Origin: Mycoplasmoides pneumoniae FH
Lineage (GTDB): Bacteria > Bacillota_I > Bacilli_A > Mycoplasmatales > Mycoplasmoidaceae
Reading direction: 5' to 3'
Length of the DNA: 32,000 bases
Assembly: GCF_001272835.1 (NCBI RefSeq)
Contig: NZ_CP010546.1
Coordinates: forward strand, 512,809-544,808
The notes under the pieces were generated by a model, which saw only the letters and a list, made by a program, of their open reading frames with translations, did not search any database and had not been told where the DNA came from. Both the position numbers and the translations under genes were made by a program. Positions 14,106 through 14,356 of this stretch are shown here, piece after piece (positions within the stretch are counted from its first letter, which is position 1; the number at the start of each line of letters is the position of its first letter).

Positions 14106-14258
14106 TAACGCGGTTTTTGCTCTCTAAAGGTTAAATTTTTGCTTTATTTTGGCACTTTAAAAGCTAGTTTTTACCTAAAAATAAGTATTGATAAGTAAGA
14201 AAAACTGCTTTAGTGCCCACTGGTGCAACTAGCTTAATCTCTTGGCTTAATTTTGTAC

Positions 14259-14264
14259 ATTTTA
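14259..14264 (-). promoter_or_regulatory. candidate -10 box (TAAAAT) for copy A
   Basis: TAAAAT on the minus strand lies in the B-A spacer, exactly 36 nt downstream of the A16 tract. The same arrangement occurs in the C-B spacer. It is followed by a conserved TTAAGCCAA. Confidence 0.4.
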
Positions 14265-14300
14265 AACCACGATGGCATGACAAACTTACAATTTCAAACG

Positions 14301-14316
14301 TTTTTTTTTTTTTTTT
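14301..14316 (-). repeat. homopolymer: T16 on + strand (A16 on the coding strand)
   Basis: I counted 16 consecutive T directly in the sequence. The tract lies in the 251-nt spacer between the copy B stop and the copy A start. Confidence 0.95.
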
Positions 14317-14356
14317 GAAAGAAATTGATTGCTTTAACTAACCTGCTTTTATCTAA

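Follow-up and report, generated by a model that had tools for sequence, protein, structure and literature searches.

A slippage-prone poly(A) tract upstream of a predicted -10-only promoter between DUF3713 gene copies of Mycoplasmoides pneumoniae

The window analysed here, a stretch of 32,000 nucleotides translated with TGA read as tryptophan, belongs to a genome assembled as a single contig (817,207 bp, 40% G+C, 99.4% complete) and is the dnaK-to-HMW1 region of M. pneumoniae. A tandem array of DUF3713 genes lies on its minus strand (Table 1). Proteins identical to those encoded here are present in NCBI assemblies such as CP002077 (M. pneumoniae FH). Copy A is the counterpart of MPN436 and is intact, and copies B and C are broken paralogues of it. 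Beyond copy C, a DEAD-box helicase gene, the gene for a further DUF3713 paralogue of 1324 aa and that for an EAGR-box protein of 1018 aa follow in this order, likewise on the minus strand. Copy A and the 1324-aa paralogue share 23-28% identity, in agreement with the 24% given for Mpn436 and Mpn444 in a preprint that counts Mpn436 as one of five essential lipoproteins and assigns it a parvulin-type PPIase/chaperone fold (bioRxiv 10.1101/2024.09.05.611430). The frameshift that splits copy B is located at a C4T7 run, unchanged in 11 of 12 loci checked; both frames of this copy are open across about 1280 codons. This would fit a pseudogene that is recent and fixed, or else read-through of the site by slippage.

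Table 1. Features of the DUF3713 array, its spacers and the long A/T runs of the genome. Positions refer to the window unless G000:C1 is given.
Feature	Position	Strand	Remarks
dnaK	7331-9118	minus	
Gene for membrane protein with LPG_synthase_TM domain	9174-10361	minus	
Copy A, intact DUF3713 lipoprotein of MPN436 type, 1244 aa	10371-14105	minus	signal peptide and lipobox; Pfam PF12506, E = 3e-234
Promoter-like site TTGGAA-17-TAAAAT	14008-14036	plus	within 5' end of copy A
Copy A ATG	14105-14103	minus	
B-A spacer	14106-14356		251 nt
Predicted leader of copy A	14106-14250	minus	145 nt
TTAAGCCAAG, conserved block at predicted 5' end of transcript	14250-14241	minus	after gtacaaaa
Predicted transcription start	14251-14254	minus	A residues about 5-8 nt past the box, just before TTAAGCCAAG; placed by the usual distance from -10 to +1
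TAAAAT, predicted -10 (Pribnow) box of copy A promoter	14264-14259	minus	fits TAnAAT; conserved in C-B spacer
36-nt stretch between tract and box	14300-14265	minus	
GTGGTT, final six nt of this stretch	14265-14270	minus	conserved
Middle 20 nt of this stretch	14271-14290	minus	diverged to background level, no net indel relative to C-B spacer
cgtttgaaat, block adjoining the tract	14291-14300	minus	conserved with gtttagaaat of C-B spacer; predicted about -39 to -48
A16 homopolymer (T16 on plus strand)	14301-14316	minus	predicted about -49 to -64 from start site
Copy B stop	14359-14357	minus	
Copy B, DUF3713 paralogue in frames of 275 aa and 1008 aa	14357-18152	minus	
C4T7 run in copy B	~17366-17376		
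TAAAAT of C-B spacer	18224-18219	minus	
Sister A16 tract, C-B spacer	18261-18276	minus	36 nt upstream of TAAAAT
Copy C, several DUF3713 fragments	to ~21941	minus	
TTAAGCCAA with TAAGCT, B-A spacer	14232-14250		
TTAAGCCAA with TAAGCT, C-B spacer	18190-18210		
TTAAGCCAA with TAAGCT, DUF237/DUF240 site	G000:C1:617606-617651		
Long run 1	G000:C1:438976-438990	minus	
Long run 2	G000:C1:527109-527124	minus	
Long run 3	G000:C1:531069-531084	minus	
Long run 4	G000:C1:608869-608885	minus	
Long run 5	G000:C1:617502-617517	minus	

For the spacer between copies B and A the initial annotation had described an A16 run that is followed after exactly 36 nt by a TAAAAT hexamer and thus occupies the positions 37-52 nt upstream of this hexamer; all of these elements were recovered in place. 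TAAAAT is a full TAnAAT Pribnow box and was the second strongest variant in a reporter screen in M. pneumoniae (PMC5573727). A sigma-70 scan of the minus strand of the B-A spacer returned neither a -35/-10 pair nor a recognisable -35 box, which fits the -10-only promoters of M. pneumoniae (PMC5573727, PMC4402517). Downstream of the box, the block TTAAGCCAAG would lie at the 5' end of the transcript, and 4 nt past it stands TTAAGCT; in the C-B spacer the sequence is TTAAGCCAAAAAGTAAGCTTG. Within a distance of 40 nt, TTAAGCCAA and TAAGCT occur together at only three sites of the genome, each of which shares a spacer with an A16 tract; at the DUF237/DUF240 site the pair is situated upstream of its tract. 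By BLAST this similarity is not significant (E = 0.02-0.4).

The spacer between copies C and B, 163 nt in length, repeats the A16-N36-TAAAAT arrangement with the same tract length and the same distance, as had been claimed. The two spacers are homologous (72% identity over about 100 nt, E = 2e-6), and the identical distance of 36 nt is therefore a matter of shared descent and not of independent events. Coding DNA beside the two spacers is about 70-83% identical. In an ungapped comparison of the 36-nt stretches, 7 of the 10 positions on the side of the tract are identical versus 5 of the 20 middle positions, and the block GTGsTTTAAAAT has been kept in both diverged spacers. Just past the box the two differ by an indel (8 versus 9 nt), and some 30 nt ahead of either tract a TAAAAG block has been kept. 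Had the tracts diverged like the adjacent 36 nt (47% identity), survival of A16 in both copies would by our own estimate have a probability of about 0.55^16 = 7e-5. Microsatellites can stay pure through slippage alone, without selection.

The surroundings of the orthologue in a genome resembling that of M. genitalium (G009, 580,076 bp) bear on the origin of this junction. There, the ATG of the orthologue overlaps the end of the helicase gene and no spacer is present, so that the promoter-bearing junction is new in M. pneumoniae. In this species the overlap with the helicase gene involves copy C, and one has to go two gene lengths further to reach copy A. The MG_307-like protein of G009 is matched most closely by copy A, at 54% identity versus 47-49% for copies B and C, and between copy A and the other two copies the identity amounts to 63-66%. 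Judging from these identities and from the pattern of overlap with the helicase gene, the DUF3713 array is an old and lineage-specific tandem duplication, with both spacers as copies of one junction. Among 18 related genomes, none has an A/T run of at least 9 nt within 1.5 kb upstream of its DUF3713 genes.

Compared with the C-B spacer, the predicted leader of copy A contains about 88 nt without counterpart. The initial annotation had taken these for an insert between the conserved block and the ATG. The difference in length is real (251 versus 163 nt), but an insert with clean boundaries is not apparent, as the gaps of the alignment are scattered between about 14111 and 14231. An origin as a mobile or repeated element was rejected, the extra sequence having no second copy in the genome and its best other match extending over 31 nt (E = 0.002). 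A structured RNA or riboswitch was likewise dismissed, since the leader matches no Rfam family and folds no better than shuffled sequence (z = -0.84). The leader is invariant across 12 strain sequences. It holds weaker TAnnnT hexamers that could be further transcription starts.

A promoter-like site on the plus strand, located inside the 5' end of copy A, faces the spacer and its T16. The T16 might be thought to stop antisense transcription or to insulate against it, for example from this very site, about 270 nt downstream of which a U-run would be transcribed; alternatively, the A-run might mark the 3' end of the upstream mRNA. Both proposals are very improbable. Neither spacer shows a hairpin ahead of its T-run (z = +0.79 and +0.92), and terminator-like sites were found in neither of them, on which grounds an intrinsic antisense terminator using T16 was rejected; an A-run encoded in RNA, for its part, is not a known terminator. 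As terminator-like sites were not found in the two spacers, copy A may also be transcribed by polymerases that read through from the helicase operon, and any argument that builds on the essentiality of this gene loses weight accordingly.

Tract lengths were compared in 15 public assemblies and the window, the strains being non-independent samples. As the check suggested in the initial annotation, this comparison revealed that neither tract is invariant. The B-A tract measures 12 nt in one sequence (strain FH), 15 nt in seven, 16 nt in six and 17 nt in two, so that 14 assemblies and the window fall into the range of 15-17 nt. The C-B tract ranges from 8 to 18 nt, with 8 nt in five sequences, 10 nt in two, 13 nt in one, 14 nt in two, 15 nt in three, 16 nt in two and 18 nt in one. 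At least four and at least seven alleles, respectively, are thus present, and outside the tracts an alignment of 6.1 kb from 12 sequences contains five SNPs and one 3-nt indel. The tracts are by far the most variable sites in these 6.1 kb. One-base differences between assemblies may in part be errors of sequencing or assembly, and in the assembly of strain FH each of the three tracts checked is short. The A8 and A10 alleles found before the broken copy B in five and two assemblies, respectively, depart too far for sequencing error; the same assemblies have B-A tracts of 15-17 nt. The spread of lengths differs between the B-A and C-B tracts when all alleles are considered (Levene, p = 0.0002) and not when alleles of at least 13 nt are compared (p = 0.38); the tighter B-A range rests on the C-B alleles of 8-10 nt, and these may go back to one or two events. 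The Lipoprotein_3 tract at 439 kb measures 13-16 nt in seven assemblies. A scan of metagenomes for further alleles gave no matches. Neither MutS (MutS_V) nor MutL was found in the 99.4%-complete single-contig genome. Together with the length of the A16 run and the differences between strains, this bears out the view of the B-A tract as prone to slippage.

Runs of this length are exceptional in M. pneumoniae. The two spacer tracts are the sole A/T runs of at least 12 nt in the window, where they yield 10 overlapping 12-mer matches against 0.84 expected; none of 100 shuffles reached 10. The whole genome contains 347 A/T runs of 7 nt, 30 of 8 nt and five of 9 nt, none of 10-14 nt and then five of 15-17 nt; geometric extrapolation predicts about 0.001 runs of at least 15 nt, some three orders of magnitude fewer than observed. 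All five are runs of A on the minus strand, and all five are situated 5' of genes from surface-protein multigene families (DUF3713 twice, Lipoprotein_3 twice and DUF237/DUF240 once). The Lipoprotein_3 tracts stand 28-29 nt before the ATGs of paralogues, with 87% identity of the 439-kb and 609-kb loci over 600 nt, and the fifth long tract lies between tandem DUF237/DUF240 genes. An element common to all five loci was considered and discarded: homology is confined to the DUF3713 pair and to the 439-kb/609-kb pair, and no significant similarity was detected across the groups. Nor do A-runs of at least 7 nt keep a preferred distance to TAnAAT boxes across the genome, and a general design of A-run, N36 and -10 box was dismissed as no such spacing was found. 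A literature search of incomplete coverage returned no paper on these tracts, and an earlier description may exist.

The main rival to a promoter function draws on several of these observations. It regards the tract as a neutral relic, an A-run that arose once in the junction, was copied with the duplication and has been kept by expansion and contraction of the homopolymer, with no role in transcription. Common descent of the two tracts is what it would predict, as is drift of lengths between isolates in a genome where MutS and MutL were not found; the tract before pseudogene B is equally long in many strains, a general spacing between A-runs and -10 boxes is missing, and the UP score matters little in M. 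pneumoniae (PMC4402517). We nevertheless hold a mere relic to be possible but on balance doubtful. The census jumps from an empty class of 10-14 nt to a cluster at 15-17 nt, every one of the five tracts is found 5' of a surface-protein family gene, M. pneumoniae and the M. genitalium-like G009 share a poly(A) ahead of a DUF240 gene, and the tract has remained unbroken beside sequence that diverged to background.

Long A-runs are common in relatives of M. pneumoniae. The single long tract of G009 is an A17 (G009:C1:36791-36807), and 169 nt separate it from the DUF240 gene downstream (Pfam E = 1.7e-90). The fifth tract of M. pneumoniae stands before a member of the same family, and poly(A) 5' of DUF240 genes is thus common to two species. 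In G009, a TATATA hexamer 31 nt past the tract is preceded by a GTGGTT block, an arrangement that resembles the GTGGTT-TAAAAT of the B-A spacer. In G011 (1,029,022 bp), at least 12 lipoprotein genes (MKKFKKKFLLTGLALAVPLVGAIASAC...) are arrayed in tandem between 739 and 784 kb, one about every 4 kb, and CCACTTGAC-A(14-21)-CAAAATATT stands 94-95 nt before each ATG in a TTGAC-A14-21 layout. The product has no Pfam match, and the array looks like a vlp-like phase-variable family. In G007 (L069, G007:C1:99764-102776, minus strand, near 1496), the arrangement TCTTGAC-A18-TAAAAT is a textbook vlp-type promoter with a TTGACA box, an all-A spacer of 17 nt and TAAAAT. Poly(A) 5' of surface-protein genes is therefore a known recurrent theme, to which the DUF3713 tracts add another example, one of different geometry.

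This geometry separates the B-A spacer from the vlp genes of M. hyorhinis, in which poly(A) reportedly forms the promoter spacer. Both have a slippage-prone poly(A), within a range of 14-21 nt, 5' of tandem mycoplasma lipoprotein genes, but the vlp tract is the spacer between -35 and -10 and its length sets expression on or off, while the M. pneumoniae tract lies wholly upstream of the core promoter. A tract between -35 and -10 is found in G007 and G011 and not in the B-A spacer. An on/off phase switch of the vlp type, where one length permits transcription and others silence it, would be in keeping with the position of the poly(A) ahead of a lipoprotein gene in a mycoplasma and with the true vlp-like promoters of these two relatives. 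For copy A we deem it extremely improbable, because the flank of the tract (tttctttc) offers no TTGACA-like box and TAAAAT follows only 36 nt beyond, so that the tract is not a -35/-10 spacer, because lengths of 15, 16 and 17 nt all occur in cultured isolates, because slippage leaves the proximal edge of the tract in place and because the gene is reportedly essential (bioRxiv 10.1101/2024.09.05.611430).

With the start placed 6-8 nt past the box, the tract falls to about -49 to -64 and the conserved A/T-rich block beside it to about -39 to -48. In E. coli, the UP element of rrnB P1 and upstream A-tracts are said to act by contact with the C-terminal domain of the RNA polymerase alpha subunit. 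The B-A spacer would be alike in that its A/T tract is predicted to lie ahead of the -35 zone, with a further A/T-rich block after it. The genome also encodes the alpha C-terminal domain (PF03118, 82.7 bits), with the motifs TVRTFNCLKR and NLGKKS. In VRTFNCLKR and NLGKKS we see what we take to be the E. coli DNA-contact residues R265, N268, C269, G296, K298 and S299. The UP consensus consists of a distal AAAWWTWTTTT and a proximal AAAAAARNR. Compared by eye, the match is partial, the A-run fitting the distal A/W positions and not the T positions. The initial annotation had assigned the tract to the position of an UP element, and from the predicted start it would overlap the distal half of an E. 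coli-type element. In contrast to the mixed A/T consensus of E. coli, a pure homopolymer of 16 nt reaching beyond -60 is present here, its stimulatory effect is putative, and the M. pneumoniae promoter has no -35 box. The tract also overlaps the interval of 30-45 nt that has been used as 'UP' for M. pneumoniae promoters, in which, unlike E. coli, UP-type AT-richness is minor and the UP score adds little to promoter prediction (PMC4402517). A screen of random promoters reaches only to -37 and is thus silent on -40 to -64 (PMC5573727).

We favour, with a probability of roughly 0.45, the reading that the tract, prone to slippage, forms an UP-like portion at the upstream end of a -10-only promoter born of tandem duplication, with length drift of little consequence. 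The poly(dA:dT) run would then be part of the junction made by the DUF3713 duplication in the M. pneumoniae lineage. The TAAAAT of this junction would act as a -10-only promoter and provide the reportedly essential copy A with a start of its own, two decayed copies now lying between this gene and the helicase operon. Together with the GTTTnGAAAT block, the A-run (about -39 to -64 in all) may form an UP-like A/T tract with a narrow minor groove, and contact by the alpha C-terminal domain would raise promoter strength. Without mismatch repair, the run would drift by about one base between isolates. Such drift would leave the distance between tract and box intact and probably have little or only a graded effect. 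We infer all three elements of this proposal: the activity of TAAAAT as a promoter, its stimulation by the tract and the near-neutrality of changes in length. The initial annotation had suggested that slippage could alter the geometry or strength of the promoter. This is weakened by the fact that the tract does not shift at the edge nearest to the promoter: the distance to the box is unchanged, lengthening is distal, and it is the DNA further upstream that is rotated.

This rotation is the basis of another proposal, a contingency locus of the rheostat type. Each slip by one base would turn the A/T-rich DNA upstream, such as the TAAAAG block, relative to the promoter, and output would change in steps as for the T-tract in the sabA promoter of Helicobacter pylori. 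The two systems share a promoter-proximal homopolymer of 13-18 nt and isolate-variable length upstream of the core promoter, a surface-protein gene and a host with few transcription factors, and sabA offers a precedent involving contacts of the RNA polymerase alpha subunit (PMC4081817). The number of alleles, set against five SNPs in 6.1 kb, and the many promoter-associated poly(A) tracts in the genus point in the same direction. The sabA tract, however, abuts the -35 box and splits it from mapped UP-like A-boxes, whereas the M. pneumoniae tract ends about 13 nt upstream of a would-be -35. The range of 15-17 nt amounts to less than one fifth of a helical turn either way, and the gene in question codes for an essential housekeeping extracellular foldase rather than a typical variable antigen (bioRxiv 10.1101/2024.09.05.611430). 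On this evidence a rheostat at copy A is rather improbable.

A simple repeat upstream of a core promoter also precedes the vlhA (pMGA) genes of M. gallisepticum, in the form of a (GAA)n repeat that reportedly lies upstream of the promoters. Here, too, a lipoprotein multigene family from the same phylogenetic group is involved, but in vlhA the repeated unit is a trinucleotide, expression is permitted at a single copy number of this unit (12), and a non-essential variable antigen is turned on or off, whereas in M. pneumoniae a mononucleotide run stands before an essential gene. Surface variation in M. pneumoniae is thought to arise mainly by RepMP recombination. It would be a bold and improbable step to see in the five A15-17 tracts a small dedicated set of hypermutable rheostats beside that recombination, one of which would tune the MPN436-type foldase lipoprotein from cell to cell.

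In practice, no sites vary more than the five long tracts in these otherwise nearly identical genomes, and as the tracts are also prone to assembly error, care is called for in typing and variant calling. If the tract is inert, it is simply what duplication has left behind in a genome that lacks mismatch repair. M. pneumoniae serves as a reference minimal cell, and its promoter models are built almost wholly on the -10 box. With a long, strain-variable homopolymer at UP distance from its predicted start, an essential lipoprotein gene offers a natural way to ask whether DNA beyond -40 matters in this organism, and whether slippage adds a cell-to-cell variation in expression that current models ignore.
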